DNA of 63,769 nt, filler included, from Reclinomonas americana ATCC 50394 (Eukaryota): the NCBI GenBank assembly GCA_048213135.1. It is 4 parts of 2 records of this genome, joined end to end, with 100 filler letters (N's around TTAATTAATTAA, not from the genome) between each part and the next. Parts side by side here need not be neighbours in the genome. Positions count along the whole stretch, not along the records: positions 1 to 29,142 come from PS015122.1; 3 more parts are not named here. One strand, written 5' to 3'. Under the pieces are notes generated by a model that saw nothing but the letters and a program-made list of their open reading frames with translations, ran no database searches and was not told where the DNA came from. Below are positions 1 through 57,944 of the stretch, in pieces. How positions within the stretch are numbered: position 1 is the first letter of the stretch; each line of letters begins with the position of its first letter. The translations under genes were made by a program, and so were the position numbers.

Positions 1-3000
1 GGGGGAGAATGCGGGGGAGAAAGCGACGCACCATCTGGATGCGGTAGTCCGCAAGTGTGCGACCATCCTGCAACAACAAACGACGCACAGTGAATACAGC
101 ACATCAGACTTCATCAAAGGGGGAGATTGAGACAGAAAACACGCACCTCCAGCTGCTTGCCTGCGAAAATGAGGCGCTACGCGGAAAGACAAGAAACGAA
201 GGAAGAGTCAGCACGCAGGCCGACTCGGGGACAACGCACAATGCAACACACCTGCTGATCTGGCGGAATACCTTCCTTGTCTTGGATAAGGTACTTGATA
301 TCCATAATTGTGCTGATGGCATCCACAATAATCGTGATTGTCTTGCCGGTCTGCGAGAATTAGATCAGCCTCCAGGCACATGCGCAATCGTCGCAAAAAT
401 AATGTCGACAAACTCATTCTCTCTCTCTCTCTTCCCCCACCACACCCGCAACGCACCAGAGTCTTCACAAAGATTTCGAAGGACGAGCCAAACACGTACA
501 CGCGATCCACAGGTGACGGATAGAAGGCCGACAGGTAATGCTCGACTGACTGCGGTGCGTCGTTGGAGATCAATCGCAACACAGCTGTCGTCAACACCAA
601 TGAGATTGAGCACCACGACTGCGATTCTTTGGAGCGCACAAATGCACACGCACCCAGATCCACGGCCACCAGCGTCACAGAGGCGCCAGCCACCGGACGG
701 TTGTTGGCATCCACCACACGAACCAGCGCCGACGATGCGCGTCCAGGGACAGCAGCCTCCGCAGGGAACTCAACGGTGGCCTCGAGTGTGCGCGACGCGG
801 TGGACACCCAACGCGAGTGCGTGCTCGGACGGTTCGGCACGTCGGAGCGGACGTACACAATGTGTACCATCACGCAAGGGACCATCTGCGGCAACGATGA
901 GTGTGAATCTCTCACGCTGTGGGTGCAGAAGCATCCCCTTCTTACCTGCTCGGTCACCACAAATGGCACCTCGGTGAACTCATTTTCAAGCACCACCTGA
1001 TGCATGCACACACACACACACGTGTGAGCACTCAGAAGAGCGCACGGATGGACAGGTATACACGAACCACACGCGCGTCCTCAATCATGGCGGAGCCAAT
1101 CGTCACAAGCGCGACAAGTCGGCCGTCTGCGTGACGCGGAATGCGCACGGCAGCCGTGCTGCCGACGCGAAGCTGCGTGCACCATTTGGTGAGAGGGGTG
1201 TAATCGCACACAAAAAAACAGACTATCCGGCGCCACTCACCGGCTCCTTGCCGTCGTCCTCCACACCACGCTCGTCGACAATGGTCACCTTGTGCTGCGG
1301 CTGCCGAACCGGCGCGGCAACCGGCCGAGCCACATCCTCTTCCGGCCTCCGTGCCACGTAGTACGAGACGTCGGCACCGTTCCAACGGCCTGCGGCATCG
1401 CGAATGTACGCCGTGACGGTGACAGTTCCCGTTTTCTGCATGGTGACATGCAGAGGATCTCCCTGAGAAGGAGTGGCGAGGCTCGTGAGAAACTCTCCAT
1501 AGTCACAACATCTTCGGCGCGCACGGACGGACGATACCTTGATGGTGCCCTGCGTGTAGTAGCTGGCCACCGTGTACTGTACGAACTCGCGAGTCTGCGT
1601 CTGCTCGACGTGGTACAGCACGACAAGATCCTCGTCGTCCACTCGCTCGCCAAGCTCGTTGACCAACACATGCGACACCGCAACTTCGTCGCCAACGTAG
1701 ACGGCGTTCTTCGGCACACCCAGACCCACATAGCGAGTGGAGGGGTGAATGATGTAACTCGTCTCCGATCCCCACGTCTGCATGCTGCTGTCGGTGGCCA
1801 GCACTTGCACCTGCGCCGTGACCGGGTGCACTGAGGTGGTCGACCGGGCCGCCAGATCGGCACGCAGCTCTCCCTTGTCGCTGAACCTCGCGACGAACTG
1901 ATCCACGTCCTCACGGAGCTCGGACAGGTCCTGCACTCCGCTCAGCGTGAAGTGGTAGTCGGCGAGCTCTGCACACACACGCACATTCGGTCAGAAACAA
2001 GCTAACACGGAGGGACACGAGTGAAATCAGTACCCTTGTCTTTGGCGGAGAAACGGTATCGCTCGTAGGAGACAACAGTGCGCCCAAACGCCGAGGCCAG
2101 CGGATCGCCCGTTTGCAACTTGGCCGTTCCGCGGAGCTTGACTACGTCACCCACCACGCACTGGCCGGGCTCAACGGTGGCCGCAACCACGAATTCAGGC
2201 TGCACAGCAACAACAACAACAACAGCAGCAGCAGCAAGTGAGCTGCATAACATGAGTGGTATTGTTGAGCGCGCTGTGTCCCACCTTGCGATATTGCTGT
2301 TCAGCAGAGTGAGGAATTGAGTGAGCGGCGAATGAGGTAGCCGAGAGACAAGCAACTATAGTCAACACACACAGACCTTGACAGTAATGGTCTTATCGAT
2401 TGAGTCGCCAAACGTGTCAGATCGCACCGTGATCTTGAAATTGGGCACCATTTGACCGTCGGGCATCTGCACAGCGTCCGGCAGCACGAAACGAGACCAG
2501 AAGACACCGGTGGTCGCGTCGTACGTGACCGTGGTGTTGGTGACTCCTGCATGGATTCACGGTGAGCTGCGGGCCTCGTCCTTTCCTCCTCTTCCTCTCA
2601 TCGCCACTCACCGGCAATGTCCACGTAGAGAGTCAGCTTCGGATCGCAGTCGGGGATCACCAGCTGACCGTCGTGCAGATTGAGGCGCATGTCGCCGCGC
2701 ACACAGACTTCCTCGCCCGAGCTGTACAGCCGGCTGTGGATTCACAGAGCAAGAGAGAGAGAAGTGAGCAATGAATGTGAGTAGGCGCGCACGAGGAGGC
2801 GCTGCGTGCTGTTGCACGTACCGGTCCGTCGACATGTGGAAGAGTGCGCGGCCGCCTGCCACCGGTCGCACGCCCGCCATGATGGGAACAACACCCCATC
2901 CAGTCACGTGCCGAACGTGCACACTGTTACACGCGAACTCGTTGGCCGGAATGGTGAGCAGTCCAGCGGCGTCCGAGTGGAAAACCTACGAGCGCACAGT

Positions 3001-6000
3001 ATGAGTACGCACGCACACGGCTCCTAAAAACAGATGCAAAAACAACTGCACCCTTTCTGCTGGCTTTGTGGGATCCGAGCTGTTGAGCAGCCGGAAAGTG
3101 GCGTTGACAAGCGGCTGGTTGTCACCAGTGCTGGCCGCCAGCACAACCGTGCGGCTGTCGCACAAGAACCCGCTGCACCACACAGAAGAAATGGTCACCA
3201 GTGAGCGACGTGCTGCTGCTGAACTGCACCCACTCTCTGACGTGCGCACCAGCGGAATGATTGCACCCACACCAGTGACGAATGGATACGCTCCACCAGA
3301 GTCAATGAGAAGTGACGGGGGTGACCAGGAGTGGGCACAAAGTGGCCCATGCGAGCGTAGTGCGGCAGGACGTTGTGCCCCATCATCGGCGCGTGCTTGA
3401 GACTGTAATGGTAGTTGGTGGAGAGGTCCCACAACGCGGGCGGCAGAGGGCGACCGATTTTGGCAGAGAGTGCCGCCAGCACATCGGGCACCGTCGTCGA
3501 CTTGAGCACCGACAGCTTGACACCGTCCGCCGCCGCCGCCGCCGCTGCCTCGTCCGCAGCATCGCCAAACACGCGCTGAGGCACACGAATGATGACAGTC
3601 ATCTCTTCGTGCGCCATGCCCAGCTCCTCCACGCCGAGATTCGCTGAGAATCCCGCCGGCACCTGTGTCGACACGAGGATGAGCGCCATTGCACCGATAA
3701 AGCAACACATGCAAATGTGACAAGCGTACATTGTCACCACCGACTGCCTCGATCAGCAGCGCCAGTGGCTGATTGCGTCCCTCGTGAGTGAACACCGAGC
3801 CAATCTTGTAGACAGAGTACTCTCCCTCTCGTTCAATCTGTCGAAATGACGAGTGAATAACACACACTGTGCGGACAGAGTGCAAGAGAGGAAGTACGCA
3901 CCGCGAGCGCGGAGCGTCGGTTGGCGGCGCGCACTTTGTTTTCGTAATCGACTCGAGCCGAACTGCCACACGGCGCAAAGTGGGCGCCCACATCGTCTTC
4001 GCTCGGCTGGTACTTGAAGCAGTTGACGGCGACGATGCCTTCCACACGAATCGAGGCTTCCTCCTCTGGCGTCAGGCTCTACAAACATGCCCAGAAAAGC
4101 ATCCCACGTAAACACACACACGCACGCACACAAGGCCCCCAGGGAAGGTATGCAGACCGCAATGGATTTGCCGATCTTGCGCGGCACCGGAGCCAGCGGA
4201 CACATGCCGTAACGCGAGGCAAGTCGCAGTTGCTGACCGTAGTCATCTGTGGCCGAGGCGACGGTAACCTTGTGTGCAGGCACATACTGGTCAGTACAAC
4301 GGAGAGAGCCACCGCCACGCAGACAACGAATGTAGAGACCAACCTTGTAGACGTCAAACGGCACGAACAAGTCTCCGAGGCGGACGGTCACATTGGAGCC
4401 CCACAACGTGAACGGACTGTCATTTTGCTGGCGGCCTCCAAAGTTGACGCGGTCTCCCGGTTTCTCGAGTCGATCGGCCGACAGGAGTTCACCTGCAACA
4501 GGAATGAATTGTGTTGGTGGCGGTGGAAGTGACAATACATAAGCACCGACCGCACGTACCGCGAGTGACCGAAATGATCTTGATGTTGCGAATTTCCGCA
4601 GTGGGGTTCTGTGGTCACATGAGGGAATGGGATGAGAAGGGAGAGGAGATGAGGGAAGGCGGATATAGGACAAAGAGTGGAGAAAGAGAGCACACACAAC
4701 ATGCAGCAGGATTCAGAACTACTGTACGCAGAGTAAAAGTAAACGAAAGGGGAGACACCCGATCGAAAAACAAGCATGATACAATGCCGACCGGCATCGT
4801 CTCATTGTTACGCACCGAAAAGTTCACTTGCAAATGCGTCTGGTTCACGAACGAGACGGAGCTGAGCTCGAATGTTGGCAGAACCTGTCCGACACACACA
4901 GATTAGCTAGCGGCCACGAGCACACAAAAATGTGCTCGTCGTCGTACCTGGAAGTTGAAAGTGTGTTCCTGCAGCGACGGCAGTGGGCCTTCGGCCGACG
5001 GCAGTCCAGCGGCCAGCTTCACCATGACTTGGCTACCGATCGGGAGAGGCCGCGCCGGTTCAAAGTAGACGCGCTGATCGCTGTAGTCGCCACCTCCGTC
5101 GGCTGGCTCCGGCGCCGCGACTGCATCACACAACTGCGTAGCGCGCATTTTTGCAAGTCAGCGGCACTCACCACAGCACCCCTCTACTCCACAAGGCACT
5201 TACATGTGTTGCGGCCTCGGCTCCATTCAGCTGCCAGAACGAGATGCCAGGGATAATGAGCTCTCGCACAATCTGCGACGGCAGTGATTTGAGTGGACGG
5301 TGGCACAATGCACGCGAATGAACGAAAGGGACAACTTGCCTGCTGATCGAACAGCAGCTCGCACCGTGGTGTCTGCGTGCGAACCACTCCCTGCGGAGCC
5401 CACGTTTGCACCTTCATGCGCGGCGTGGTGAAGCGGATGCGACGCGGGCGCCCAAGAGTCTTGCCGGTGATGGAGCGAGCATCTGCGAAGAATGAAATAG
5501 TTGAATTGGAAAAGAGGATAGCGAAAAGAACGGCAAGAAGCACATTGCAGCTCACCCTCTGTCACCGTCACCGTCTGCATTGTTGCACGAATGGATGAGT
5601 GCGTGCACAATCTCAACGGGAGCAAGGCGACACGAGACGCAACAAATGTCGTGGAGCCATTCAACCGCGCCGGTTTGTAGGTCACAATCTGCGGATTCTG
5701 CCACACAGTGACACCGCCAAAGAAGAACTCGGGGTTCTCGCACATGAGGAAGGCCGGCGGCTCCTCGCTCATGTCCTCCGGCGACAACTCGGTCATGGGT
5801 TGCGAGAACTCGACCACAATCTACGCAACACCACGAGTCACGACAACAACAACAACAACAACAACGACAAAGCCGAGTCGGACAGCACAAACCTGCGGGT
5901 CGTAGCCATTCACCACACCATTCGGTGCCACACGGGCCACCACCAGCGGCTTGTCGGCATCGTCGTCGACCGGCACCTCGTCCACGATGCCCACTGTGAA

Positions 6001-6906
6001 TGCATAAGAAACACAGTACTCGTCTCCCTCTCTCCCACTCTGTTGACAATACACGCAACGCTGAGTGATCTCCACGGCATCGCCGAGATCGACCGCCTCC
6101 GCCGGCACCATTCCCTCTGCCACGGCTGCCGGATCAAAGTTCGCGTCCTCGCCACTGCCGTCCTCCAGATCCATGCTTTCGCAGACTCGAGCCGCAAACG
6201 ACTCGCCAGCAGCACCGTGCAGCGGAGTCGCATGATCTGCAGACGAGGAGGTCATGAGACAAGAGACAAGAGACAGGGTGCATCCTCTTCGCGCAACTGA
6301 CAGCCGCGGCCTGTGCAGCCGCATCCACTGCCTCGCCGGCCTCTCCCCTCGGCTTGAATCCAATGGACGCCGACGCCAGTGCAGTGCCGCCGGGGAACGC
6401 CCACAAAGTCAGCTGCGGCGACTACATGGTAAGCACTATAAATAGATTCGGATGATTATCATCAATGCACACACACACACCGTCGGCATCTCGTCGCCCT
6501 CTGTTGGGATTCCGGCCAACTGACAGATCTCTGCCAGCGACTTGCTGGTGTTGACCACGTGACCACCGCGCTCAGTGACGAGCACCATTGATACATCGTC
6601 ATCCGCTTGCAATTCATCGTCGTCACCAGCAGCAGCAGCATCTGCGGGGACGAGGAATCGCGACAAGCCCGGGTCCTCCTCGCACACAATCGACAGCACC
6701 ATTTCCAGTGGGAAGTCGGCGGGGAACTCCATGCCGGTCTGAATGGCCTCGGCTGGCTTGCCCGCAATGTTGTGCTGATGGGCGACATCTCCAACCTGCT
6801 CCTCCTCCACCTCTTCTTCTTCGTCTCCGTCCCGCATTTGCCGGTTCACGGCAGCCACCACGGCGGGTGGCAGGAGGTCGGGCGACACGATGCGAAGGCG
6901 GATCAT
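1..6906 (-). CDS. Bacterial-type alpha-2-macroglobulin-like protein, multi-exon, with an internal ubiquitin domain; 3' part lies beyond the left edge
   Basis: Spliced exons give motifs of bacterial A2M in the expected order: [64 protein letters not shown] (TDRxxYRPGE); [72 protein letters not shown] (the VDxAVL motif before the bait region). ATG at 6906; GT-AG junctions keep frame where I checked them. Confidence 0.88.
32..480 (-). other. Ubiquitin domain encoded within the A2M gene (exon segments 457-480, 252-350, 147-176, 32-67)
   Basis: Spliced translation [63 protein letters not shown]. All three introns are phase-0 [12 protein letters not shown] is in the same exon (457-584) and frame as the A2M sequence [23 protein letters not shown], with no Met at ubiquitin position 1. 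Confidence 0.95.
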
Positions 6907-7258: not shown

Positions 7259-8684
7259 TCACCACTCCTCTCGATTGCCAACAACAAACACCTGCATCTC
7301 GGCATCCTCCAAGATAAAGCAACGCAACACGAATCGCGGTAGTGGTTCCATGCCAATTCCGATCTCGTCCATCTGCAGAGCCTCCACAGCCAGTTTCGCC
7401 GACTTCAACTCTCGCGCGATCAACGCCTGTTTACTCCGTTGCCCTGCAGCACGAGGCGAATGAGCAGCACCATCACCTTTGCAAGTGCACCCCACGCAGT
7501 ACCGCACCGGCATCCCACACGCGCACTGTGCGATCCTCCGACACGCTGACAACGCGGCCCTGGCGCACAAACGCAACATCGGTCACGTGGCGGTTGTGTC
7601 CGTGCATGGCATGCGAAATGCTTTGGAACAGGTCTCCGTGGCGAGTCCACACGCGGGCAATGTACCCTGCGGTCGTGTGCACAGTCAGCACAAAGGGCGA
7701 GAGAGTATCAACGGGGACACGCTGCGCACCTTGAATACCCAACACATGACGGCCGTTGCGAGACACTTGCAGCGATGATGGACGGTGGCCGTGGTAACTC
7801 GACGGCTGAAACCAGTCCACCAGAACCTCTCCATTCGACATGTCATACTCTGTAAAGTGCAGCCTGTGGTTCTCCCCCTCAGCGTCGACAGCCATCAGCT
7901 GGTGCGCCTCACACCCAATGATTGTGCACGAATTGAATTGGGCCACCGTCCTGCCGACTGCGTGCACCTCCACGGCCGCGGAGTGGCCGTCGGTCTCCAG
8001 GCGCCAGAATGAGAGCGTGCTCTGGTCTCCGAGCACCGCCATGAAGCGGCTGTCGGCCGATATGTGAACAGACCGCGCATTGGCAACGGACAGCTTGTAC
8101 AACTCCAAGCCGTCACTCAAACGCAGCAACGAGACGCCCTCCGCTGAGGCCACCGCAACCATGGCCAAGGTGTCATCAGCGGGCAGCGTCAACCCGCAGG
8201 CAATCGCGTGCACTCTGCTCGGAGCCCTGGGCGTCGACCACAGCACACAACTGCCCTCCTGCACATGCTCCGTGTCCACCAACCACAGACGCGCACAGTT
8301 CTCTGGGTGCATGCAGCCGACCAGCAAGCGCAGCAGCTGCCCACCTCCTTGTCGGCCACTCGGAGGAGGCACAAAGAGCAGGTGCGTGACGCTGCATTCG
8401 GGATCACGGAGCACGCCCACACGATTCCACTCGGCGCCACTGCGCCACACAAACACATGGATGCCGTCGCCACACGAGGTTGCCATGAAGAACCCATCCG
8501 TGGACACTGCCACGCAGCGAATGCAGTGGCGCAGCTTGCACAGCACGGTGTGTGGTGTGCGCATGTTTGTGTGAATGCGTCGCGAGGAGCAAGTCTCGTC
8601 AAAGAAGCTGTCATCGCTGTCACTTCCACTGCCACTACCATCGTCTTTCGTGGGAGCAGGTGAGCGGGAACGAGAGGCACCCAT
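7259..8684 (-). CDS. WD40-repeat protein with N-terminal MGxxxS myristoylation-like motif and shared C-terminal VLRCF module (2 exons)
   Basis: WD repeats such as GHNRHVTDVAFVRQGRVVSVSEDRTVRVWD; N-terminus MGASRS; last exon 7259-7443 encodes GQRSKQALIARELKSAKLAVEAL..EPLPRFVLRCFILEDAE. Confidence 0.88.
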
Positions 8685-8748
8685 GATGCGTCGACGAAGA
8701 AGAAGAGTGACTCACTCGACTCGTCTGTCCTCAGTCGTCCCCGCTACG
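8685..8748. promoter_or_regulatory. Probable bidirectional promoter (64 bp) between divergent WD40 genes
   Basis: Start codons at 8684 (minus) and 8749 (plus) are only 64 bp apart. Confidence 0.5.
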
Positions 8749-10253
8749 ATGAGTGCCTGTGAGCGCACGTTCTCCAGTCGCCCGGCCATCATCTCGCTCT
8801 CTGTGCACTCTGCGAGTGGACTGGTGGCGACCTCGTGCACCGATCATGTGGTGCGCCTGTACGATCTGCACAGTGGCGAGTGTGTGTGCGATCACATTGA
8901 GTCGCGCACTCGTGCACTCATTGCGCAGGTGCACTTCTCGCCCGTGTCGGTGCTGAGTGGCTCCGATGTGTGGCTGGTGTGTGGCATGTTTGGGGTCATT
9001 GAGGTGTGGCATGTGATTGAGCGGCAGCAGCGACAACCGCGACTGGCGTGGACTGTGAACGACACCGAGTCGTTTGCGGGTGTGTGCTGTCTGGCCATGA
9101 CACACGATCAGGAGCTGGTGTTTAGTGGCTCCGAGGACAATGGAGTGGTGTATGCGTGGGCGCGCGATCCGGTGGTGCGGGCGAGCGGCACGTGGATCCG
9201 CACGTACGGGACCACTCGCATGGTGGGTGTGATCGAGGCCGTGTATGCACTGGCGGTGAGCCAAGACGACCGGTTACTGGTGTCGGGGACGTGCTTTGGT
9301 TCGATTGTGGTGTGGGACATTGAGTCGGGCCTCGCGGTGCGCCGCATGGACAACAGGATTCACGTCTGGTCGCTGGCCGTCACTGAGCGTGAGCCAGACG
9401 AGTTGCTGGTGGTCAGCGCACACGACGATCAGCGGATACGCGTGTGGGAGCTGGCGACGGGCACGCAGCTGAGTGAACTGTGCAGCGATAGCGAGTGGGT
9501 GTCGTCGGTGGCCATGTCAATCGATGGCACTCATGCAGCCAGTGGATCGGAAGGTATCGCAACAGAAAGGGAGATGATCAGAGGTTGTTGACTCACTCTC
9601 CTCCTTGGCAGACGGCACGGTGTATGTGTGGCGGCTGAGCCCACCGGCTCAGGTGGCCGTCTTGCGCGGTCACACAAAATGCGTATGTGGCGTGGCGTTT
9701 CTGCCCGACGATCGCATCGTCAGTGCCTCGCGCGACGGCACTGCGCGACTGTGGGCGGGCGGTGCGTCCCTTGTTTGTGCTGTTATCTTGCCTTTGCCAA
9801 CAATGTCTCATGCTTCCTCTCTTGTCTGTGTGTGCTGCAGTGTGGAGCACGCGGTGGTGTGCACAGCAAGAGTGGGCCACCAGCATCCGTGCCGTGCACG
9901 CACTCCCTTCATCCTGCGACGACAGCGGAGAACCTCTGCCACGTCTCGTACTGCGCTGCTTCCTGCTCGAGGACGCACGACTGGTGGCACTCGCGGAAGG
10001 AGGTGTGGCTGGCATTGCACACATACATCCACACGCACGCTGACTGCTCGACACAGTGACCACCGAGCCGGCGATCGAAGCATCAAGGGAGGAGCTCGAG
10101 CAGGAGCTAGACGCGGCTCTGTGTCGCGAAGACGAGTGGCGTGAACGACTGCTGCTCACCGAGCGCGAGCTGGACGCCGCGCAACAACAAGTGCGCGAAC
10201 TGCGCGATCAACTGGCTCGATTGCAACAATCATCATCACTAGCCACCGTGTAA
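8749..10253 (+). CDS. WD40-repeat protein with VLRCF module and C-terminal coiled coil (4 exons)
   Basis: WD motifs ([55 protein letters not shown]). Exons about 8749-9553, 9612-9761, 9841-~10002 and ~10057-10253. The third exon encodes [31 protein letters not shown]; the last is heptad-rich. Confidence 0.85.
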
Positions 10254-10835: not shown

Positions 10836-12441
10836 ATGGTCAGCGCGCGAGGGGCACTGCTCCTCTTGCTATGCACTCTCGTCTTTGTACTTCTCTCACA
10901 ATGCGCACATGTGCTGAGCTTCAGCAGTGAGTGACATGCGGAAAACAAACTGCGCGCATTGATGTGTTCATGCTGACTCTTCCTTCTCTTCCTTTCCCAG
11001 TCAAGTACCGCGCATTCACCTCTGCATACGAGGAAGTGCGTCGCTCTTCTCTCTTCTCCCCTTCCCCTGTGTTCTCTGTCTCTCTCACACACGCGCGCAT
11101 GCAGAAACGACGATGCTGGTGCCCCGACGAGTCGATGCCAGTGAGTACGCGTCTGTGTGGCAACCTCACGTGGTGCGCGCTGGATCGAGAGACCGGGCGC
11201 ATGCTGCTCTTCAAGTGCGTCGAGAGGGAACTGTCGGTGACCGACATGCGGCGCTCGGGCAAGGCATTCACCCCGATCAATGGCGCGTGGGTGCTGGCAT
11301 CGCCCGAGGAGCAGCAGCAGGCTAGCGAGGTGTGTCCGTCGGTGCACGAGAGCCTCCAGGAGTGGGTGAGTGTCGTCCTCCGAGTCGTGTGTTCTCTGTG
11401 GCAGGTGTGCAACTCATCGCGTGTACACAGTCGGTCGAAGATGGACACGGTTGGTCTCTGTCGTGCATACTCGCTCAGCGCTCTGCTCCTTCCTGACACT
11501 CCAGCGCGCCTGCAGCCCTCAGTAATATTCCATTCATGGTGTCGGCGCCGGTGTCTGTAAACGGCGTCGTTGAGTCGGCTGTGGTGGGCTCCGGCTTGGT
11601 CACGCCGTCGTTAATGACAGACGGCAGTCCGCCGCCGAGCGTCTCCTGCCTGATGATCTCGTCGCGCCCGGAGCGGCTGGCCTTTGCGGCGCGCGCCATC
11701 CACATGTACATGCAACAGTCGTACTCGGCACGAGAGCTGGTGATTGTGGCCTCGCCCGAGAGCGCACCAGGCCTCGAGCGTGTGCTGGAGGTGGTCGTCG
11801 GCGACAGCGAGCAGCAGCGACGAGCCGGCATTCGCGTGGTGACCATGACAGATGCCAAGTCGCAGACACTTGGCGACATGCGCAACCTATCGGTGCGCGA
11901 GGCCACTGGCGACTACGTGATGGTGTGGGACGACGACGACGTGTACGACCGTGACCGCATCCTTGTGCAACTGTCGACCGTGATTATCGTGCGCCAGTAT
12001 CAAGAGTACGAGAACGGAGGCTTCCCGCCATTGTCGGCCTGCCTGTTACGCCGCCAGCAGTTCATGCAACCTCGTGTATCGCCATCACTCCACATGACCC
12101 AACACCGCGGCTGGGAGAATTCGCTGCTGTGCTTGCGCTCGCAGATGCCCACGTACCCCTCGCTGGATCGAAGGGAGGACAGGGAGGCTGTGGAGCAGCT
12201 TTGGGTACAGAGTACCGTGCTGGTGATTGACGCACCGGCACTGTACACGTACATGTATCACGGCGACAACACGTGGGGCAGCGAGCACTTCTACCACATC
12301 TGGGAGAGCTCGTCGGTGACGTTTGAGGGTGAATCGGCGGCGCAGCTGGTGGCGCAGACCCAACGACGTGCTGGACTCGACAGCGAGTGGAGAATACCCG
12401 GCGAGCTGGGGAAGACAGTGGAACGACTGCTGCTGCAATGA
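10836..12441 (+). CDS. GT2/GT-A family glycosyltransferase, copy 1, with N-terminal signal/anchor
   Basis: Hydrophobic N-terminus MVSARGALLLLLCTLVFVLLSQC, small 5' exons, then one long exon with VSCLMISSRPERL..QQSY..ELVIV..TLGDMRNLSVREATGDYVMVWDDDD..GWENS..ED..YHGDNTW. The 5' exon junctions are approximate. Confidence 0.85.
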
Positions 12442-12847: not shown

Positions 12848-14451
12848 ATGGTCAGCACGCGAGGAGCTCTGCTCCTCCTGCAATGCACTCTCGCGTTTGT
12901 GCTTCTCACACAATGCGCACATGTGCTGAGCTTCAGCAGTGAGTGAATGCGGAAAACAAACTGCGCATTGATGCGTTTATGCTGACTCTTCCTGCTCTCC
13001 CTCCCTCAGCCAAATACCGCGCATTCACCTCTGCGTATGAAGAAGTGAGTCGCTCTTCTCTCTTATCCTCTCCCCCTGTGCTCTTTCTCACACATGCGTA
13101 CAGAAACGACGATGTTGGTGTCCCGACGAGTCGAGGCCAGTGAGTACGCGTCTGTGTGGCAACCTCACGTGGTGCGCGCTGGAGCGAGAGACCGGGCGCA
13201 TGCTGCTCTTCAAGTGCGTCGAGAGGGAACTGTCGGTGGCCGACATGCGGCGCTCGCTCAAGGCGTACACGCCGATCAATGGCGCGTGGGTGCTGGCATC
13301 GCCCGAGGAGCAGCAGCAGGCGGGGGAGGTGTGTCCGTCGGTGCAAGAGAGCCTCCAGGAGTGGGTGAGTGTCGTCCTCCGAGTCGTGTGTTCTCTGTGG
13401 CAGGCGTGCAACTCATCGCGTGCACCCAGTTGATCGAGGATGGACACGGTTGGCCTCCTGCTCATTCGTTCTCGCTTGTCGCTCTGCTCCTTCCTGACAC
13501 TCCAGCGCGCCTACAGCCCTCGTCGACATCCCGTTCATGGTGTCGGCGCCGTTGTCTGTTGACGGTGATGTCGACAACGCAGTGATTGCCTCTGGCTTTA
13601 TCACGCCGTCGTTGGAGGTCAAGACCGATGCAGACGGCAGTCCGCCGCCGAGCGTCTCCTGCCTGATGATCTCGTCGCGCCCGGAGCGGCTGGCCTTTGC
13701 GGCGCGCGCCATCTACATGTACATGCAACAGTCGTATCCGGTACGCGAGCTGATGATTGTGGCCTCGCACGACAGTGCGCCCGGCCTGCAGCGCGTCCTG
13801 GAGGTGGTCGTCGGCGACAGCGAGCAGCAGCAACGAGCCGGCATCCGGGTGGTAGTCGCGGATGCCAAGTCGCAGACACTCGGCGACATGCGCAACCTGT
13901 CGGTGCGCGAGGCCTCGGGCGACTATGTGATGGTGTGGGACGACGACGACGTGTACGACCGTGACCGCATCCTTGTGCAACTGTCGACCGTGATTGTCGC
14001 GCGTCAGCATCAGGAGTACGAGAAAAATGGCTTCCCGCCACTGTCGGCCAGCCTGCTGCGCCGCCTGCAGTTCGCACAGCCTCGCGTGTCTCCGTCGATA
14101 CACGTGACCCATCAACGCGGCTGGGAGAACTCGCTGCTGTGCTTGCGCTCGCAGATGCCCACTTACCCCTCGCTGGATCGAAGCGAGGACAAGAGGGCTG
14201 TGGAGCAGCTAATGATGCAGAGTACCGTGCTGGTGCTAGAGGCTCCGGTACTGTACACGTACATGTCTCACGGCGACAACACATGGGGCAGCGAGCACTT
14301 CAGCCGCATCTGGGAGAGCTCGTCGGTGACCTTTGACGGTGAATCGGCGGCGCAACTGGTGGCGCAGACCCAGCGACGTGCCGGACTCGACAGCGAGTGG
14401 AGAATACCCGGTGAGCTGGGGAAGACAGTGGAACGTCTACTACAACAATGA
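12848..14451 (+). CDS. GT2/GT-A family glycosyltransferase, copy 2 (tandem paralog)
   Basis: Same exon structure and motifs as copy 1; many differences are synonymous and the catalytic ORF 13537-14451 is intact. Confidence 0.85.
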
Positions 14452-19300: not shown

Positions 19301-22300
19301 AGCACACATGCACACACATGCACACACATGTAGCACATCGAAAAATCTCACCGAATTCGAGCAACCGGGGCAACTCATTTGCAGCACGAAGCCATCGAGT
19401 GTCGACAGTGTGGTGTTGAAGACGTCGGTGACCATCACAGCCACAGTTCGAGCCTGCGCTGCCGACGGTGGCATGGCCATCGGCGTTTCATGCACTGCCT
19501 TGGCCGTGAACGGAGCTACGCACACAACACACAACAAGTCAAGATCAAAACCCGCCACAATGTACCATTCTGCTGCACGTACGCAACATGACGCCGTGCT
19601 GTTTCCGTAGGCTGCCGAATTGCCGACAAATGTGAGGCCACGCTGCTGATCCCATATTGGTTGCCACACGACAGTGGCCAGTCGGAGCAGTTCGAGACCA
19701 TTGACGGCTCCATCCCAGAATATGCCAGCTGTCGCGAAAACACGGATAAGAAGAATTAATCTCACTTGCACGCGCGTGCCTGCTCCGACTCTTCACACAA
19801 ACCGCCACCACCCGGAGCAATGTCGCCGTCGCTGAGGGCTGATTTGAGTGCAATGTTGTGATTGAACTGCACCGACTGGAGACTGACGCCCAGCGGATCG
19901 GAGAAGGCAGTGGTCCGCGTTTCAACAGTCGTCGAATCCAGGGACGCAAAATTGACGTACAGAGCCGCACCGCGACGACCATTGTTGCCATCAAACAGCG
20001 TGTTGGAAATGGACGCCGCGCCGACTGTTATCAAGCTGATGGCGCCACCATCCTGCACGGCCGAGTTGCGAGAGAAGATTGACTGCTGAACGGAGAATGA
20101 GGTGAAGGATGTGGCACTGATTGCACCGCCGTTGGAGCCTGTTGCAGCATTGCCGGAAAACGTTACGCCAGTCATATTGACCGTGGCCGAGTCCTGAATC
20201 AACATGGCGCCTCCTGTCGGAGCAAAGTTGCCGACAAAGGAGCCGTCGCTAAGCGACAGCTGCACAGAATCGGCAACGTAGAGAGAGCCACCAGAGTTGG
20301 AGGCCACATTTTCCGTGCACGTGACAGTGTCGAGTAGAACTTGCGCACTGCCAGCGAGAAACGCCGAACCGCCCGAGTAGGCCGCTGACCCATATTGCAG
20401 CTGCCCCGCGAGGTGTGTTAGCAGGCATCATCAACCACGTCCCACATGGACAAACACGGACGGAGAAAAGAAACCTGGCTGAAAGCCTCCTGCCACGTCG
20501 TCAATCCGGTGGCAAACACATGACCGCCATCGGTCTGAGCCTTGTTGTCGGAGATGGTGGCCGCCGAAGAAAAGAGCCGTGCCACCTGTTGCGAGTAAAT
20601 GCCACCTCCCGCCAGCGTAGCGCTGTTGGAATCGAGAGTCACCACGAAATTGGTGACGGTGGCGGCGCCGCTCCTGTGGTTCAAGCGACGCCTGGTCAGC
20701 ATGCAGCGCACTATTCTCACACTTGCTCGCCATCACGCAACAGATACATGCCACCGCCATCGGCCCGAGTGGCCACGTTGCCAGATATCAAAACGTAGTT
20801 GAAAAAGTGACTGCTTTGATCGGTGACAAACATGCCACCGCCAAAGGTGGCACGATTCTTGATAACAGACGACTGGTACCATTCCGTGATGGCGCTGACA
20901 CCCGCATAAAACCCGCCCCCAAAGCCCACAGCTGTGTTATTGTAGACCACGGAACCGCCTTGTACCGTAAGCTGTGCCGTAGACGACATGTACAGACCGC
21001 CACCGTTACTGAAATTGGCCATATTGCTTGTCACGTTGCACGATTGAAGCGTCTTCGGGTTGCGCACAGGAAAACACACACACAAAATGAGCGAAATAAT
21101 GGACGCTCCAGGTTGACTGCAAACAAATGTAGTACGCAACTGCCTGGACCATTTGGCCAACCAGTGAGATACCGCCACCGAATTCGGCAGTGTTGAACGA
21201 CACGGTGCTGTTGATCACCGACACTCCACTCTGAGGAAGCACGACGCCGATGCCACCGCCGCTGGCCGTCATGGCAGTGTTGCCAGAGATCACTGAGCGA
21301 ATGATCTTGGAAGAAAGACCGGCAGCAGACACGCCACCGGCACCATTGTCGGAAAATGACAGGTTATTGATGACATACGAGTCCATGATCGTCGAATAGA
21401 AGAGGAGGACGCCACCGCCGCTGGCCACCTGCGCGTTGACGATGTTGCCCTGAAATGTGCAGTTCATCGCCACGCTGGCTGAATCCAAAAGCAGAGCGCC
21501 TCCACCACACGCTTGACCAGCCGACACAGGCGGGGAATACAGCATCAGCACGTTGTTCGCAAACCAGCAATTAATCAGGGTCGAGTTCGTGGTGGCAAAC
21601 ACCGCGCCACCACCGTTGATGGAGCCGGAATCGAAGTATATGTTATCGTTCTTCGAAATTAAGCCTCCCTGACCAGGTTCGTGCGCCTGATTGCCCACGA
21701 GTGTCGAATTGAGCAACTGCACCGGACCTTGGCCAATCATGATAGCGCCTGCGTTGGTACACGCAGCCGTCAAGAACACAGCTATATGTGTGCTTCGATC
21801 ATGCGAACACGAAACCTCCGCCATTGCGCTGGCTGCCACGAGCATCCAGAACATTGTACGCGCCACCAGAGCCTGCACACGGAGAAGAGTGAGTCTTCAC
21901 TGTCCCGAGATGAGAGAACGAGAGGACGCACCATCTCGAATCGACATATTTTGCGTCAGTGTGCAGTTTCGAATTATGGCAGGCGTCTGCACATGAACGA
22001 AGGGGAAATCAGCTTGCGAAAGCGACAGTGGAGTGGAGGTGTGTCAAAGTACACACCGTGGCGCCAGACGCGAGGAATATACCGCTGCGGTATCACCACC
22101 GTCAACGTGAGTACTACAACGCACGGGACAGCTACGATGATTTGGATACATGCACATACCCGCCACCATTGTAGCCGCCGGAACTCGAGCCGAAGCGCGT
22201 GTTGTTTGCTCCGCCGGAACCATTCTCTGCCGTGTACAAGTGCGTTTCTGTGAATCACAAGCACAGCAGCGAAGCGAGACACGTGCACGACGGCGCACCT

Positions 22301-38292: not shown

Positions 38293-41200
38293 ATGAGCTT
38301 CTTCTCGACACACTCGACTCCCGCCACCACCGCCACCACCAACGGTCGACCCATGTCGCCTGCAGCGACCGGCCGCAGTTCTGCCACTCAGCAGCAGCAC
38401 GCCAACGGCAGGAGACCACCATCGCGCTCGTCGATGATGGCCGAGACGTGAGTACCCCTGTGCACACAGAGAGGGAAAGCGATCGCTTATGTTGGAACGC
38501 AGGGCCTCCTATGCATCGTCGACGCACGACGACGGTGGTAATGTGTACTCGATTCTGGCGGATCCCATTCCACTGGATCGCTCCGGCAGTCGGCAGTACC
38601 TGTCAGCGAGGTGGGTGTGGGAAGCAGCAGCCAGGGAGACCACTCGAAAGCGCGCGGAATCATCGCGCACACACACACGCTTTCTCGTTCCTCTCCTCTC
38701 ACTCCCACTCCACGCAGTCTCTCGGCACCTGCCTCACGACCAGTGTCTCCGCCTCTTCGCAGCGCGCGTGACAGCCCTGCGTTTACGACGATCAATCCCC
38801 TGGCCTATGTGGACGGCTACAGCAGCGCGCTCTCGGGCGGTCCACGCACACCACGTTCGCCCTCTTCCGTGCCGCACATGAACGGCACCGCCTCGTCGAT
38901 GCTCGATGCGGTGGTCCCTCTGCTGCCCTTTGATGGTTGCGTTTTTCTGCGTGGTGGCGATTGCAGTAGTTCTCTGTCCGCCAACGCACATACCTTGCAC
39001 AGTGGCCAGCGTCGGCGACTTGCCGCACAATGTGGTCGAGTTGCGCACGCTCGTCGTTCACCTCCGACGCGTGATTGAGACGAAAAATGCTGAACATCGT
39101 TGCGCGCGCGCGTGCCACGCTCCGCGTGTTCAAGTGCCACTCCTCTCTGACATGTGCATGCAGACCAACTCGTGGTGCGGCTGGAGGAGATGCAGCGGTT
39201 ACGGGAAATGGATCAGTCGGCACTGCGGGAGCGCGACTCGAATATGGTGATGCTGACAGAGGAGAAGGCACTAACAGAGGCGGCGCTGGCGGACACGCAA
39301 CGCTCGCTCATGGATCGCGAGGCGCAATGCGACGCGCTGCGCAGCAGAAGAGATGAAGTTGCGGCGGGAAACACAAAGAATGAGAGACGTGGAGTAAGCA
39401 GGCGACTCACTCGCCGCTCGCGCAGTTGGTGCGGGCGCTGGAGGCAGAGCAGCAGACACGGGATGCCGATCGGCGGCAGTTTGAGGAGATGGTGGACCAG
39501 CTGGAGGCGGCGTTGCAGCAGGCAGAAGAGACGAATCAGGTACTGGTAGAGGAGCGCGACAGTGCGCTGCAGCGGTTGCGCAAGGAGCGCAATTCGCACA
39601 AGCATCAGCTGCGACAACTNNNNNNNNNNNNNNNNNNNNNNNNNNNNNNNNNNNNNNNNNNNNNNNNNNNNNNNNNNNNNNNNNNNNNNNNNNNNNNNNN
39701 NNNNNNNNNNNNNNNNNNNNNNNNNNNNNNNNNNNNNNNNNNNNNNNNNNNNNNNNNNNNNNNNNNNNNNNNNNNNNNNNNNNNNNNNNNNNNNNNNNNN
39801 NNNNNNNNNNNNNNNNNNNNNNNNNNNNNNNNNNNNNNNNNNNNNNNNNNNNNNNNNNNNNNNNNNNNNNNNNNNNNNNNNNNNNNNNNNNNNNNNNNNN
39901 NNNNNNNNNNNNNNNNNNNNNNNNNNNNNNNNNNNNNNNNNNNNNNNNNNNNNNNNNNNNNNNNNNNNNNNNNNNNNNNNNNNNNNNNNNNNNNNNNNNN
40001 NNNNNNNNNNNNNNNNNNNNNNNNNNNNNNNNNNNNNNNNNNNNNNNNNNNNNNNNNNNNNNNNNNNNNNNNNNNNNNNNNNNNNNNNNNNNNNNNNNNN
40101 NNNNNNNNNNNNNNNNNNNNNNNNNNNNNNNNNNNNNNNNNNNNNNNNNNNNNNNNNNNNNNNNNNNNNNNNNNNNNNNNNNNNNNNNNNNNNNNNNNNN
40201 NNNNNNNNNNNNNNNNNNNNNNNNNNNNNNNNNNNNNNNNNNNNNNNNNNNNNNNNNNNNNNNNNNNNNNNNNNNNNNNNNNNNNNNNNNNNNNNNNNNN
40301 NNNNNNNNNNNNNNNNNNNNNNNNNNNNNNNNNNNNNNNNNNNNNNNNNNNNNNNNNNNNNNNNNNNNNNNNNNNNNNNNNNNNNNNNNNNNNNNNNNNN
40401 NNNNNNNNNNNNNNNNNNNNNNNNNNNNNNNNNNNNNNNNNNNNNNNNNNNNNNNNNNNNNNNNNNNNNNNNNNNNNNNNGGAAGGTCTCTCTTCTTTCT
40501 TCTTTTTTCCCGTGTGTTTGTTTACAACGCATCGTTGCTCACCAGCGTACTGGTATGCACAGCCGATCTTTCACCGGAACCGCCACCAGCCAAGACTGAG
40601 CGGCGGCCGGTGACGGTGCACTCGCTGCGCTCCACCAATGGCTCCACCCCCACCAGTCACTCCAGTTCGCTGTCGTCGGCTCGCTCACGCCCCAACGGGC
40701 GACCGGGAGCGTCGCAGCCGCCAGCGGCACCAGCACAACCACCGCCACCCACCTCTTCCTCGTCTTCGTCATTAGCAGCTGGAGTATCACACGGGCGAGC
40801 GACAAGCTCTTCGCGCGCCGACGCGAGGCACAAGCGCAATCATAGTGTGAGTTGTGGGTGGTGGTGGTGGCGGATTTTAGCTGGCACACGTGGCTGATGG
40901 AGGACGTTTCTGTGTGCGCATAGTTGGACTCTCTGGAGCAGTGGTTGGCGGCGAACAATGTGTTTGATGGTGATGCCACGTCGGCGGGACCGCCACCTGC
41001 TGGTGGGTGGATGGGAGGGAGAGGGGAAGGAGAAGGAGAAGGAGAAGAGGGAGGGAGGGAGAACGAAGAAGAGAGGGGGAGCAAAGAGCAAGAAGAATGG
41101 AGGGGAAGAGCAAGGAAGGAAAGGGGGGAACGGAGAAGAGGGGGGGAGAGCAAAGAAGAAGAATTTAGAATGGAAGGAATACGAGTAGGCGAGCGACGTG

Positions 41201-44200
41201 AACAGGGAGCGGAGAGGAAAACAAGAAGAAGAATGGAATGGAAGAAGAGGAGAGCAGGCGATGGATGTAAGATGCAGTGGAGAGCAAAGCAAGAAGAATG
41301 AGGGAAAGAGTGAGGAGGGGAAGGGGAAAACGGAGAAGAGAGGGAGAGCAAAGGAGAAGAAGAAATAGAATGGAAGCGATGAAGACGTGGCGAAGGATGT
41401 GAAGAGGCAGTGGAGAGGAAACCAAGAAGAATGGAAGTGCTGAAGTGGAGTTGAAGGATGTTAACCGGGAGTGGCGAGGAACATGAACGAGAATGGGATG
41501 GATAAGGAGGAAGCGAAAGGAAACAGAGAAGAGAGGGAGTGCAGTGAGGAAGAACGGCTGAGAAACACGAGAAGAACAGGCGGAGGGTGTGAAGAGGGAG
41601 CGGAAAGAAGAACAATGTAAGGAAGAAGTGGAGGCAAAGAGAAAGAGAATCGGGGAAGAGGGGGGAGAAGAAACACAAGAAGAAGAATGGAATGGCAGCT
41701 CCGAGAAAGAACAGGCGATGAATGTGGAGAGAAAAACAGCCGAAGTAGAATGGAAAAGAGAGAAAGATTAGACTAGCGAATGGCTGGGGACCAGGAAAGA
41801 GGAGGATAAAACGACGTATGCAAGTGCGCCTCCTGCACGGGCAGAAGCTTTGCTTCATTATCTCTCTTTGTCTCTCCCTGTGTAGCAGTCGCATTTCGTC
41901 ACTCTTGGCTCACATCGTCGCTCACACAGTTGAACCCGAACGCCGCACTGGTCGGGGTGAGACAGTACGTGTGGCATCGAAGCGACTAGCGGATGTTCGT
42001 GGCGGCAGCGGCAAGGTCTGCATCTCTCATGTCTTGAACCGTGCATCTCCACGTCTCATTTTCCCGTCAACCCACACAGACCAGTCGGCGTTCATCGAGA
42101 GACAGCGGCACGGCCGGCAACAGTCCAGACGCCACCAAGCCTGTATTACGCATCAATCTCAGCCGGGCCATGCCAGGTGAGCGCAAAGTGCACTCGTCAG
42201 TCGCTCGGGTGCATTGCTGACCTCGTGACACAGAAATATCACCACCAGGCGGGCGGTCCTCGCGAAGCCCTCGGGATCGCGATCCTGGTCCACGCGTAAT
42301 TCGTACCCGTCTCGATGTGTTGTAATAGNNNNNNNNNNNNNNNNNNNNNNNNNNNNNNNNNNNNNNNNNNNNNNNNNNNNNNNNNNNNNNNNNNNNNNNN
42401 NNNNNNNNNNNNNNNNNNNNNNNNNNNNNNNNNNNNNNNNNNNNNNNNNNNNNNNNNNNNNNNNNNNNNNNNNNNNNNNNNNNNNNNNNNNNNNNNNNNN
42501 NNNNNNNNNNNNNNNNNNNNNNNNNNNNNNNNNNNNNNNNNNNNNNNNNNNNNNNNNNNNNNNNNNNNNNNNNNNNNNNNNNNNNNNNNNNNNNNNNNNN
42601 NNNNNNNNNNNNNNNNNNNNNNNNNNNNNNNNNNNNNNNNNNNNNNNNNNNNNNNNNNNNNNNNNNNNNNNNNNNNNNNNNNNNNNNNNNNNNNNNNNNN
42701 NNNNNNNNNNNNNNNNNNNNNNNNNNNNNNNNNNNNNNNNNNNNNNNNNNNNNNNNNNNNNNNNNNNNNNNNNNNNNNNNNNNNNNNNNNNNNNNNNNNN
42801 NNNNNNNNNNNNNNNNNNNNNNNNNNNNNNNNNNNNNNNNNNNNNNNNNNNNNNNNNNNNNNNNNNNNNNNNNNNNNNNNNNNNNNNNNNNNNNNNNNNN
42901 NNNNNNNNNNNNNNNNNNNNNNNNNNNNNNNNNNNNNNNNNNNNNNNNNNNNNNNNNNNNNNNNNNNNNNNNNNNNNNNNNNNNNNNNNNNNNNNNNNNN
43001 NNNNNNNNNNNNNNNNNNNNNNGTAGACAGGTCGTCATTCATCACACCGTCGCCGGCCAGTGCATCGGCTGCGCATGTGCCACTGTCGCCGTCCTCGTCG
43101 GCCTCTTCTGTGGCCTCGTCGCTCACCCGTCGTCGCCACCAGCCACCGCCGCCGCGCAGTGGACAAGCCTACGATGACGTGTCGCGCGGCTCCGCTTCGC
43201 CATCGTCGTACTCGCATTCGGCATCTCATCATCATCATCATCATCATCAGCCGCTCGATCGCTCGCTGTCGCCTTCGGCTGTGTCGGTGGCCAGTGGGCC
43301 CGACGCCTCATTTGCGCACTATCGAGCGTCGGCGTCGCACTACCGGCATCGCCACGACAGTCGGCACACACTGGATGGCAGCGGCAACAGCGCGGCCGGG
43401 GATGTGTACACGCCATCGTTTTCATCGTTTTCGCGCAGTGGTGGTGCTGTTGGCGCCGGTGCAGACTCGCTGTCACAGTACTCGCGGGACTCGTCTGGGG
43501 TGCTGGAGCAGCCGCTGTCTGCGTCGTCGGCGGCCGTGACAGCGGCGGCGAGGGCTCATCTCGGTGTGCTGTCGCGATCCGGCGTGCATTCTGTGGCCTC
43601 GTCGGGGTCGCCGCCACTCTCCATCACGCGCGACAGCGCGGCAGGTGCGATGCGGGTCGCGTGTGTCACGCATACACGTGTAGTTGTCACTCACCGTCGC
43701 CTGCAGCGTCAACTGTGCACTACGTGGCTCGTGGCGGCGGCTCGCCTCACAGTCTCTCCATTCATGGTCTGTCGCCGCGGTCTGGCTCGTTGTCGCCGTC
43801 GCCGTTGCCGCATTCGCCGTACCGCCGACGTGGAGACGAAGAGGATGTGATTGCCGAGTTGGTGAGTCGACGATGCTTGTGTGTGTTCTCTGCGCGTCGG
43901 CTTTGCTCACCTCCTGCGACAGCATCGGTTGCTGGAGAGCAAATCGATCGAGATCGAAGAGCGTGATCGCATGTTGTCGAGTGCGCACCGTCGTATCGAC
44001 GAGCTGCGGCAGCGGTTGACTGAGTTACGCGAGAGAAGTGGAAAGGATGGCAAGGAGGGAGAGAGCGAGAGAAAAGGGAGAGAGAGACAAGGAGAGAGAT
44101 TGCATTCTGACTGAGACACCCAAGCGCGGTGTCAGAGGAGACCAAGCTTGTGAATCTTATCTCACTAGCTTCGGTCACGCAGAATGACGGAGTCGCGGTC

Positions 44201-52011: not shown

Positions 52012-52053
<42 letters not shown>

Positions 52054-52139
52054 GAGAGAGGAGGAGAGAGAGGAGAGAGGAGGAGGAGGAGAGAACGAGA
52101 GAAGTAGTAGAGTAGAGAGAGAGAGAGAGAGACGACGAG

Positions 52140-52180
<41 letters not shown>

Positions 52181-52694
52181 NNNNNNNNNNNNNNNNNNNN
52201 NNNNNNNNNNNNNNNNNNNNNNNNNNNNNNNNNNNNNNNNNNNNNNNNNNNNNNNNNNNNNNNNNNNNNNNNNNNNNNNNNNNNNNNNNNNNNNNNNNNN
52301 NNNNNNNNNNNNNNNNNNNNNNNNNNNNNNNNNNNNNNNNNNNNNNNNNNNNNNNNNNNNNNNNNNNNNNNNNNNNNNNNNNNNNNNNNNNNNNNNNNNN
52401 NNNNNNNNNNNNNNNNNNNNNNNNNNNNNNNNNNNNNNNNNNNNNNNNNNNNNNNNNNNNNNNNNNNNNNNNNNNNNNNNNNNNNNNNNNNNNNNNNNNN
52501 NNNNNNNNNNNNNNNNNNNNNNNNNNNNNNNNNNNNNNNNNNNNNNNNNNNNNNNNNNNNNNNNNNNNNNNNNNNNNNNNNNNNNNNNNNNNNNNNNNNN
52601 NNNNNNNNNNAGAGAGAGGGAGAGAACAGGGCTGAGTGAGGAGGAGCGGAGACAAACGGTGACAAGTTACAGTGAATGAGAGAGCGAGAGAGCC

Positions 52695-52734
<40 letters not shown>

Positions 52735-55700: not shown

Positions 55701-56265
55701 GTGCGGGCGGCGAGTGGCAGTTGAGTGGCTGGAAAAGGGGGAGGGGGTGGGGGAGGAAGAGAGGGAAAGAGAGAGAGAGGGAGGAAGAGGGAAAGGGAGA
55801 GGAAGAGAAAGAGAGAGAGAGAAAGAGGATGGGAAAAGATAGAACGTCAGCTCCAGAAGAGACAGAACCAAGCATGGCCACAAGTTGTTGCCAGAGTGTG
55901 AGGCAAGCAGCGTTCTTGATCTGAGTGGCGAGATGACGAGGGGAGACAGATTGGCCACATTGGTAACTGAGCAGACAAGAGGAAAAGAGAGAATGGTAAC
56001 GACGCCGATGTACGACCAAGCGAGAGGAGAGCCATTGGTCTCTGAGACGACCAAAGGCAAAACAGGCGTAAGAGGAATAGAGAGAGAGAGAGAGAGCGAG
56101 AGTGAGAGAGCGGACGTCAATGTCAGGCCACGCACAGCTGCCGAAGAGTGAGGAAAGACGATATTCTTGATATGAAGAGGTAGGCGCCATGTGCTGATAT
56201 CTGGGCACATTGGTACCTATGAAGACCAGGGTGCTGAAACAGACGAAAGAGGAAGAGACAGACAT

Positions 56266-56304
<39 letters not shown>

Positions 56305-57822: not shown

Positions 57823-57944
57823 TAGGAGGAGGAGGGCAAGGGAGAACGAAGGAGGAGGAGGGAGGGAGGGGGAGTGTATAGAATTGCGGTGTGGTTGGCG
57901 ATCGGTGGCATGCTTGAGCCTGGTATCATGCAAAAAGGAGAAGA

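Follow-up and report, generated by a model that had tools for sequence, protein, structure and literature searches.

A spliced reading frame of Reclinomonas americana joins a macroglobulin-like domain array to a ubiquitin-derived domain

The window analyzed here is a 63,769-nucleotide (nt) stretch of DNA, filler included, from Reclinomonas americana ATCC 50394 (GenBank assembly GCA_048213135.1), in which positions 1-29142 derive from the record PS015122.1. At the left edge of the window, on the minus strand, lies a multi-exon gene whose single spliced reading frame fuses an array of macroglobulin-like (MG) domains to a domain derived from ubiquitin. The macroglobulin with which this gene is chiefly compared below is ECAM (YfhM), the alpha-2-macroglobulin (A2M) of E. 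coli.

Exon-intron structure of the fused gene

The gene reads from right to left in window coordinates and leaves the window within an intron. Its features are listed here from the window edge inward, with the basis of each assignment in brackets.

1-31, minus strand: start of an intron with the donor GTGCGT at 31-26 and a donor score of 7.4; the window stops within this intron (sequence)
32-67, minus strand: ubiquitin-like exon 4, positions 52-63, with K63 replaced by M (translation, splice model, ubiquitin comparison)
146-68, minus strand: intron of 79 nt, phase 0, donor GTGCGT, ending in AG (strand sequence)
147-176, minus strand: ubiquitin-like exon 3, positions 42-51, with I44 and K48 (translation, splice model)
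251-177, minus strand: intron of 75 nt, phase 0, donor GTGTGT, ending in AG (strand sequence)
252-350, minus strand: ubiquitin-like exon 2 (TGKTIT...PPDQQ), positions 9-41 (Pfam ubiquitin family, PDB chains)
456-351, minus strand: intron of 106 nt, phase 0, donor GTGCGT, ending in AG (strand sequence)
457-480, minus strand: first eight ubiquitin-like residues, FEIFVKTL, with no Met (translation, splice model)
481-584, minus strand: end of the VDxxVL motif and a 31-residue linker, putative counterpart of ECAM residues ~902-936 (Pfam mapping, ECAM sequence, a non-significant colinear hhalign alignment)
653-585, minus strand: phase-1 intron, GTGCGT...AG (strand sequence)
654-885, minus strand: exon with the C-terminal part of an A2M_BRD-like region, ending in VAVDL (Pfam match below the cut-off, ESM Atlas, 42% identity to the retrieved protein P0002)
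946-1172, minus strand: two exons (1172-1062 or 1172-1068, and 996-946) with the start of the A2M_BRD-like region (manual reading and splice model)
1241-1968, minus strand: two bMG5/bMG6-like exons with an in-frame intron (75 or 102 nt) between them (ESM Atlas)
2034-2985, minus strand: exons with an MG2-type domain (local hhalign to ECAM 387-459)
2986-6906, minus strand: upstream exons in the same direction, with an insecure model and no match to a Pfam or NCBIfam family (manual reading and splice model)

The junction between the two parts of the protein lies within an exon. In the three-frame translation and the strand sequence, the minus-strand exon 584-457 is open throughout and runs from the end of the VDxxVL motif through the 31-residue linker into FEIFVKTL, and ubiquitin-like residues 1-8 are thus encoded in the same exon and frame as the macroglobulin-like linker. 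Three phase-0 introns with GT-AG ends carry the frame on to ubiquitin-like residue 63. A dynamic program that scores splice sites and codon usage, trained on this locus, returned identical exons among the 39 that it modeled. The donors concerned score 7.3-8.7 and rank among the top of the modeled exons, rivaled only by two GTGAGT donors (8.6). The program over-splits further upstream and is unreliable there; the last dozen exons contain no frameshift, by manual reading and by the splice model. The first donor of the exon at 1172 is ambiguous between 1061 and 1067, in phase 0 either way, and a candidate start codon lies at 6906-6904 in an insecure 5' exon model. The original prediction described a ubiquitin continuous with the exon of the A2M motif and spliced through three phase-0 introns, and translation, strand sequence and splice model agree with that description.

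The prediction would have failed if the ubiquitin were a gene of its own, which the sequence does not support. There is no in-frame ATG within the junction exon 584-457 and no AG acceptor just before FEIFVKTL, and a separate ubiquitin gene starting at that point was therefore rejected. In intron density, intron length class (75-106 nt) and donor type, the ubiquitin-like part agrees with the remainder of the gene. Such host-like introns disfavor a recent retro-insertion or a misjoin, and a recent retrocopy of ubiquitin was rejected as well, given the four host-type introns in the domain. Window positions 1-29142 contain no N. The strong donor after the last visible exon indicates that at least one further exon exists. 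The GC content at third codon positions (GC3) is 0.635 in the ubiquitin-like exons (32-480), a value from only 63 codons, versus 0.762 in the upstream exons (481-2985); this difference may reflect chance or a different history.

Domain assignments, relatives and the rest of the window

The ubiquitin origin of the last visible domain is recognized at the level of a single exon. Exon 2 alone, with its 33 residues, passes the Pfam ubiquitin family (PF00240) at 25.9 bits and an E-value of 8.6e-6, where the cut-off is 25.4 bits. It is identical to ubiquitin chains in the PDB at 22 of 33 positions, and 284 PDB ubiquitin sequences match it at E<=0.001. The spliced 63 residues are 51/63 identical to P0140, the closest ubiquitin retrieved; against a consensus built from 116 retrieved ubiquitin variants, 50/63 are identical. 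The count of 47/63 against canonical ubiquitin that was originally reported came out the same on a manual recount.

The domain combines a conserved recognition surface with an unusual set of replacements. The recognition residues L8, I44 and K48 are kept, as are K6, K11, K27 and K33, and positions 30-62 are nearly unchanged. Substitutions concentrate at positions 1-2, 16-29, 60 and 63, and the acceptor lysines K29 and K63 are lost, replaced by L and M, respectively. Among the retrieved ubiquitins, the derived residues are rare or absent: I16 occurs in 2/116, I20 in 1/116, M24 in 0/116, Y28 in 2/116, L29 in 6/116, R60 in 0/106 and M63 in 0/107. Most of these rare substitutions place a hydrophobic residue where ubiquitin has a polar or charged one, which suggests that the affected face is buried against another domain. 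The hydrophobic face probably packs on the macroglobulin body, and the I44 face probably remains readable. The window ends after ubiquitin-like residue 63, and the last 13 residues, including H68, V70 and any Gly-Gly, fall outside it. Given the near invariance of positions 30-62, the tail encoded downstream of the window is likely to be still ubiquitin-like.

The upstream part of the reading frame is probably an array of MG domains of the bacterial type. In the ESM Atlas, a 180-residue piece (457-996) finds A2M_BRD clusters in 25 of its 30 neighbors, with a score of 0.94, 184 shared features and a recognition value of 2614. The 255-residue exon at 1223-1990 gives a first match of 0.97, and its ten best family-bearing matches are all bMG5/bMG6. 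The neighbors of these adjacent pieces, bMG5/bMG6 followed by A2M_BRD, follow the domain order of ECAM. The residues VAVDL and AVLRL, which meet across an intron, form a VDxxVL motif that occupies profile positions ~133-140 of A2M_BRD and aligns to AVDSGVLNI of ECAM. The MG2-type stretch aligns locally to ECAM 387-459 by hhalign (score 23.8, P 0.036; a score matched by 1 of 40 shuffled queries), and 496 residues separate the MG2 motif from the VD motif here, compared to 512 in ECAM. The Pfam family A2M_BRD (PF07703) itself matches the open reading frame (ORF) 208-1080 over profile positions 64-136, at 17.2 bits and an E-value of 0.0066. Two unspliced introns interrupt this query, and the domain's first exon is missing from it; the spliced protein may score higher.

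A substantial body of results weighs against this assignment. The A2M_BRD match misses the cut-off of 22.7 bits and is closely followed on the same ORF by CarboxypepD_reg (E 0.012) and Big_1 (E 0.031), and the recognition value of the exon 1223-1990 in the ESM Atlas is 2158, below the 2300 mark. No Pfam family at E<=0.1 was found for 12 of 16 ORF pieces, including the MG2-like and bMG5/bMG6-like exons, and NCBIfam yielded nothing relevant for 14 ORF pieces, 13 of which had no match of any kind. A phmmer search of the A2M_BRD-like piece against the PDB returned no macroglobulin, only AUGMIN matches at E 0.6-1. BLASTP against ECAM was not significant, and hhalign against ECAM gave a probability of 0.5% for the full length and a P of 0.32 for the A2M_BRD-like region only. 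When the 180-residue A2M_BRD/junction piece was searched with HMMER against 1.84 billion representative sequences, nine matches were obtained at E<=0.001 and none at 1e-10. Eight of the nine were scanned with Pfam, P0003 (6,890 residues) being left out, and none of the eight carried an A2M family: six are generic immunoglobulin (Ig)-like repeat proteins (Big_1, invasin, CarboxypepD_reg, SpaA), one further repeat protein shows a weak HVA22 match, and the last, P0002, has no family. A single-sequence AlphaFold model of 1223-1990 has a predicted local distance difference test (pLDDT) score of 35.0, too poor to serve as fold evidence. Membership of the A2M superfamily is probable, on matches that lie below formal thresholds or have the standing of leads. 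The name A2M given in the original prediction draws support from the VDxxVL motif and from the bMG5/bMG6 and A2M_BRD neighbors in ECAM order, but the Pfam A2M_BRD family does not confirm it at its cut-off.

Further upstream in the same gene, the minus-strand exon 3273-3662 encodes 130 residues, including MTVIIRVPQ, with a strand-helix pattern. It has no Pfam or NCBIfam match, and its AlphaFold model, with a pLDDT of 47.4, provides no fold evidence. This exon might represent another insert with a ubiquitin-like (beta-grasp) fold. No clear signal peptide follows the candidate start at 6906; the best 11-residue hydropathy is 1.72, in a stretch that contains D and two P.

Searches for relatives of the fused gene returned little. 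P0002, the sole apparent kin among the nine HMMER matches, is a 98-residue protein from a 737-bp contig that is 42% identical over the 77-residue A2M_BRD-like exon; it ends in VVDLGLCYL, and its contig stops at this motif. Its resemblance indicates that this MG domain is present in at least one other organism. A related-locus search with the alignment of the A2M_BRD-like exon and P0002 gave 375 pattern matches in metagenomes and 90 in genomes, none of which was confirmed. An exact search for the 36 nt of exon 4 had 0 matches in metagenome contigs and 0 in genome contigs, a word-based search with the 255-residue exon among longer proteins found no relative, and tblastn within the window found no paralogue. 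A search seeded with ECAM retrieved only relatives at least 88% identical, which were unusable for a diverse profile, and a genome search around E. coli retrieved no relatives. The 116 ubiquitin variants obtained with exon 2 include no clear orthologue. One of them, P0132 (83 residues, 969-bp contig), has an internal ubiquitin-like domain that lacks a Met at its start and is preceded by a Pro/Ser-rich stretch; it shares E2, I16, S21 and L29, four of the ten derived positions that it covers and the highest number among the 116 variants. As a lead only, P0132 may be a relative of the same fusion type. A six-frame motif scan of the window found neither a ubiquitin tail nor a credible thioester site.

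The remainder of the window contains several other features. Two long intron-free frames that encode WD40 beta-propellers stand head to head and overlap by ~136 nt at their 5' ends.

7473-8711, minus strand: WD40 beta-propeller frame
8575-9591, plus strand: WD40 beta-propeller frame
11497-12441, plus strand: weak match to a family-2 glycosyltransferase (E ~8e-6)
13498-14451, plus strand: weak match to a family-2 glycosyltransferase (E ~8e-6)
19762-20427, minus strand: Chlamydia polymorphic-membrane-protein repeat (PF02415, E 1e-7)
~40000-44000 and 52000-58000: AT-richer blocks with a GC content of 0.34-0.44, versus ~0.58 elsewhere, and strong positive GC and AT skew

Runs of N, 13 with a total of 3,580 N, break up the AT-richer blocks, which probably represent repeats left unresolved by the assembly.

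Position relative to the ECAM bait and possible function

The bait region of ECAM is located within the domain MG8, and in elastase-cut ECAM the bait-region residues Arg923-Leu942 lack electron density, as described in passages of the structural report (Fyfe et al. 2015, PMC4498604). The translation of yfhM agrees with the published numbering at R923, L942 and R956. Positions 2-139 of the Pfam A2M_BRD profile correspond to ECAM residues 759-905, and profile position ~136 falls on the L of VAVDL in the protein described here. With 31 residues between the profile end and FEIFVKTL, the start of the ubiquitin-like domain maps to approximately ECAM residue 937. Likewise, in a non-significant hhalign alignment, VAVDLAVLRL faces AVDSGVLNI, and ECAM 930-987 is covered by the ubiquitin-like domain. 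As seen from its N-terminal side, the ubiquitin-like domain is therefore predicted to start inside the protease-cut, disordered stretch 923-942 of ECAM, and the placement of ubiquitin at the bait region, as originally proposed, is borne out on that side by the Pfam mapping. By analogy, the exon 654-885 would encode the half of the split, bait-bearing MG domain that precedes the bait.

What could a ubiquitin-like domain do at this place? We propose, with a probability of roughly 0.35, that the gene encodes a full-length macroglobulin in which the ubiquitin module serves as a bait that deubiquitinases (DUBs) can cleave. Approximately 1,300-1,460 residues of predicted MG domains (MG2, bMG5, bMG6 and A2M_BRD) would run in frame into the ubiquitin-derived domain, and beyond the window the gene would most likely go on to encode the tail of the ubiquitin, the other half of the split MG domain and the remaining macroglobulin. 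This continuation is expected because the bait of ECAM splits an MG domain, and a protein that stopped after the ubiquitin would be left with half of it. The C-terminal tail of ubiquitin carries the motif LRLRGG. The module would act as bait through the faces that ubiquitin-specific proteases and receptors read and that are kept here (L8, I44, K48 and positions 30-62). A ubiquitin-specific protease that cuts after the C-terminal Gly-Gly would free the loop from its tether, just as in ECAM a protease cut of the bait frees it and thereby releases the thioester domain, according to passages of the same report (PMC4498604). The outcome would be either a two-chain maturation or a sprung trap. In this proposal, we infer the continuation, the Gly-Gly tail, the cleavage and the thioester chemistry.

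Where the protein resides bears on the choice between maturation and trap. The lack of an obvious signal peptide at the candidate start, which is itself insecure, fits a cytosolic protein. If the protein is cytosolic, host DUBs would constantly cut the Gly-Gly junction, which argues against a simple trap for foreign DUBs and counts as a difficulty for the bait proposal in that form. Self-processing by the cell's own DUBs would then be the simpler reading, and a pure trap would need to be shielded from host DUBs. It is a long shot that the protein is an intracellular thioester macroglobulin whose ubiquitin bait is cut at Gly-Gly by a DUB from an intracellular bacterium or giant virus, so that the cage springs and the enzyme becomes thioester-bound.

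The end of the window after residue 63, with nothing visible downstream, leaves room for a different protein. The gene may end soon after the ubiquitin-like domain and encode a truncated MG array with a ubiquitin-like C-terminal tail and no thioester domain (TED), which we regard as possible but doubtful. Ubiquitin receptors could bind such a tail, and conjugation would be an option if its Gly-Gly were free. A bait loop offers a natural place for modules to part, and no TED-like or ubiquitin-tail motif occurs elsewhere in the six frames of the window. However, the strong donor after the last visible exon calls for one or more further exons, and the location of the ECAM bait within MG8, as given in passages of PMC4498604, means that a stop here would leave approximately three strands before VDxxVL. 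Alternatively, the gene may encode a full-length macroglobulin in which the ubiquitin-like domain stays uncleaved as a fixed docking or structural module, for example recruiting ubiquitin-binding proteins or plugging the bait site, with any cleavable bait in the flanking linkers; this is somewhat unlikely. Integrated ubiquitin-like domains without a processed Gly-Gly are found in many proteins, the derived hydrophobic residues I16, I20, M24, Y28, L29 and M63 suggest a buried interface, and K29 and K63 are lost. Yet domains of this kind are usually much more diverged than the 50-51/63 identity seen here, and the near-perfect positions 30-62 fit continued reading by ubiquitin-specific enzymes.

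Two further explanations question the parts rather than their use. The array might not be a macroglobulin at all, but an Ig-like beta-sandwich array of the Big_1/CarboxypepD_reg type or an MG-like cage protein such as CAGE, an idea to which we give little credit. Across the whole library, Big_1, invasin and CarboxypepD_reg repeat proteins give the best matches, and on one and the same ORF CarboxypepD_reg (E 0.012) and Big_1 (E 0.031) lie near A2M_BRD. Intracellular protist CAGE proteins are described, in passages of a preprint, as having MG-like domains and no Pfam matches; they measure ~2,300 residues and consist of N-terminal alpha-helical domains 1-2, central MG-like beta-sandwiches and C-terminal helical domains (bioRxiv 10.1101/2025.09.22.677704). 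Against this stand the adjacent pieces that match bMG5/bMG6 and A2M_BRD in ECAM order, and the VDxxVL and MG2-type motifs at ECAM-like spacing. Least credible, and highly improbable, is an artifact, be it an assembly chimera, a pseudogene or a truly separate ubiquitin gene. In favor of an artifact, the draft assembly contains 13 runs of N, the gene sits at the window edge, and the GC3 of the ubiquitin part departs from that upstream (0.635 versus 0.762). However, no N occurs in 1-29142, and the junction is in frame inside an exon devoid of stops and in-frame ATGs. Its divergence shows that the ubiquitin-like part is not the housekeeping gene, the introns are of host type, and the last dozen exons are free of frameshifts.

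The bait proposal would matter for how macroglobulins are triggered. A macroglobulin fires once its loose bait peptide is cut by a protease; with a folded ubiquitin as bait, the trigger would be tied to ubiquitin-specific proteases or ubiquitin receptors. Provided that the remaining protein works as a macroglobulin, it could be either a maturation device that yields two chains as C3 does, with DUBs in place of furin, or an innate-immune DUB trap inside a protist cell. Neither a C3-like maturation by DUBs nor a DUB trap of a protist was found described in the literature searched. In line with the original remark that no A2M of this architecture was known, a full-text literature search, limited to the articles themselves, found no paper on a macroglobulin with a ubiquitin domain. 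The architecture, known from a single genome, would surprise specialists on macroglobulins and on ubiquitin. If the trap proved true, it would represent an integrated decoy that guards the ubiquitin system against attack, and a naturally occurring equivalent of the suicide probes built on ubiquitin.

Comparison with known systems

The closest comparison is with the type I bacterial macroglobulins, E. coli ECAM (YfhM) and Salmonella SaA2M, which present the order of MG2, bMG5, bMG6 and A2M_BRD that is predicted for the present array. In these proteins a VDxxVL motif leads through a short linker to the bait, as it does here to the putative bait. The proposed trigger is also alike, given that passages of PMC4498604 describe a bait cut that leads to untethering and release of the thioester domain. 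However, the bait of ECAM is a disordered peptide, whereas a folded ubiquitin-like domain begins at that place in the Reclinomonas protein. ECAM is a periplasmic lipoprotein; the gene described here is eukaryotic and spliced, and its product would have ~540 additional N-terminal residues and lacks a clear signal peptide. Sequence similarity to ECAM stays below formal thresholds, and any second half of the split MG domain, PF00207 A2M domain, CUB domain, TED with CxEQ and C-terminal MG domain would lie left of window position 1.

Complement C3, C4 and C5 carry a folded anaphylatoxin domain and a processing site at the bait-equivalent split MG domain, and their cleavage gives two chains. In the Reclinomonas protein, the inserted module is ubiquitin-like rather than an anaphylatoxin, and the processing enzyme would be a ubiquitin-specific protease, not furin or a convertase. 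The likeness to C3, C4 and C5 is drawn at the level of architecture.

Polyubiquitin and ubiquitin-ribosomal protein precursors are cut by DUBs at junctions after Gly-Gly. Like these precursors, the present gene encodes a near-canonical ubiquitin (51/63 to P0140) that is peptide-bonded to another protein. In contrast to the precursors, in which ubiquitin is N-terminal or in tandem, ~1,460 residues precede the domain and Met1 is missing, and the rare hydrophobic replacements, together with K29L and K63M, further distinguish it. Synthetic ubiquitin suicide probes for DUBs differ wholly in chemistry and architecture. They nevertheless provide a functional analogy, in that ubiquitin would act as the recognition element in both cases if a thioester domain follows.

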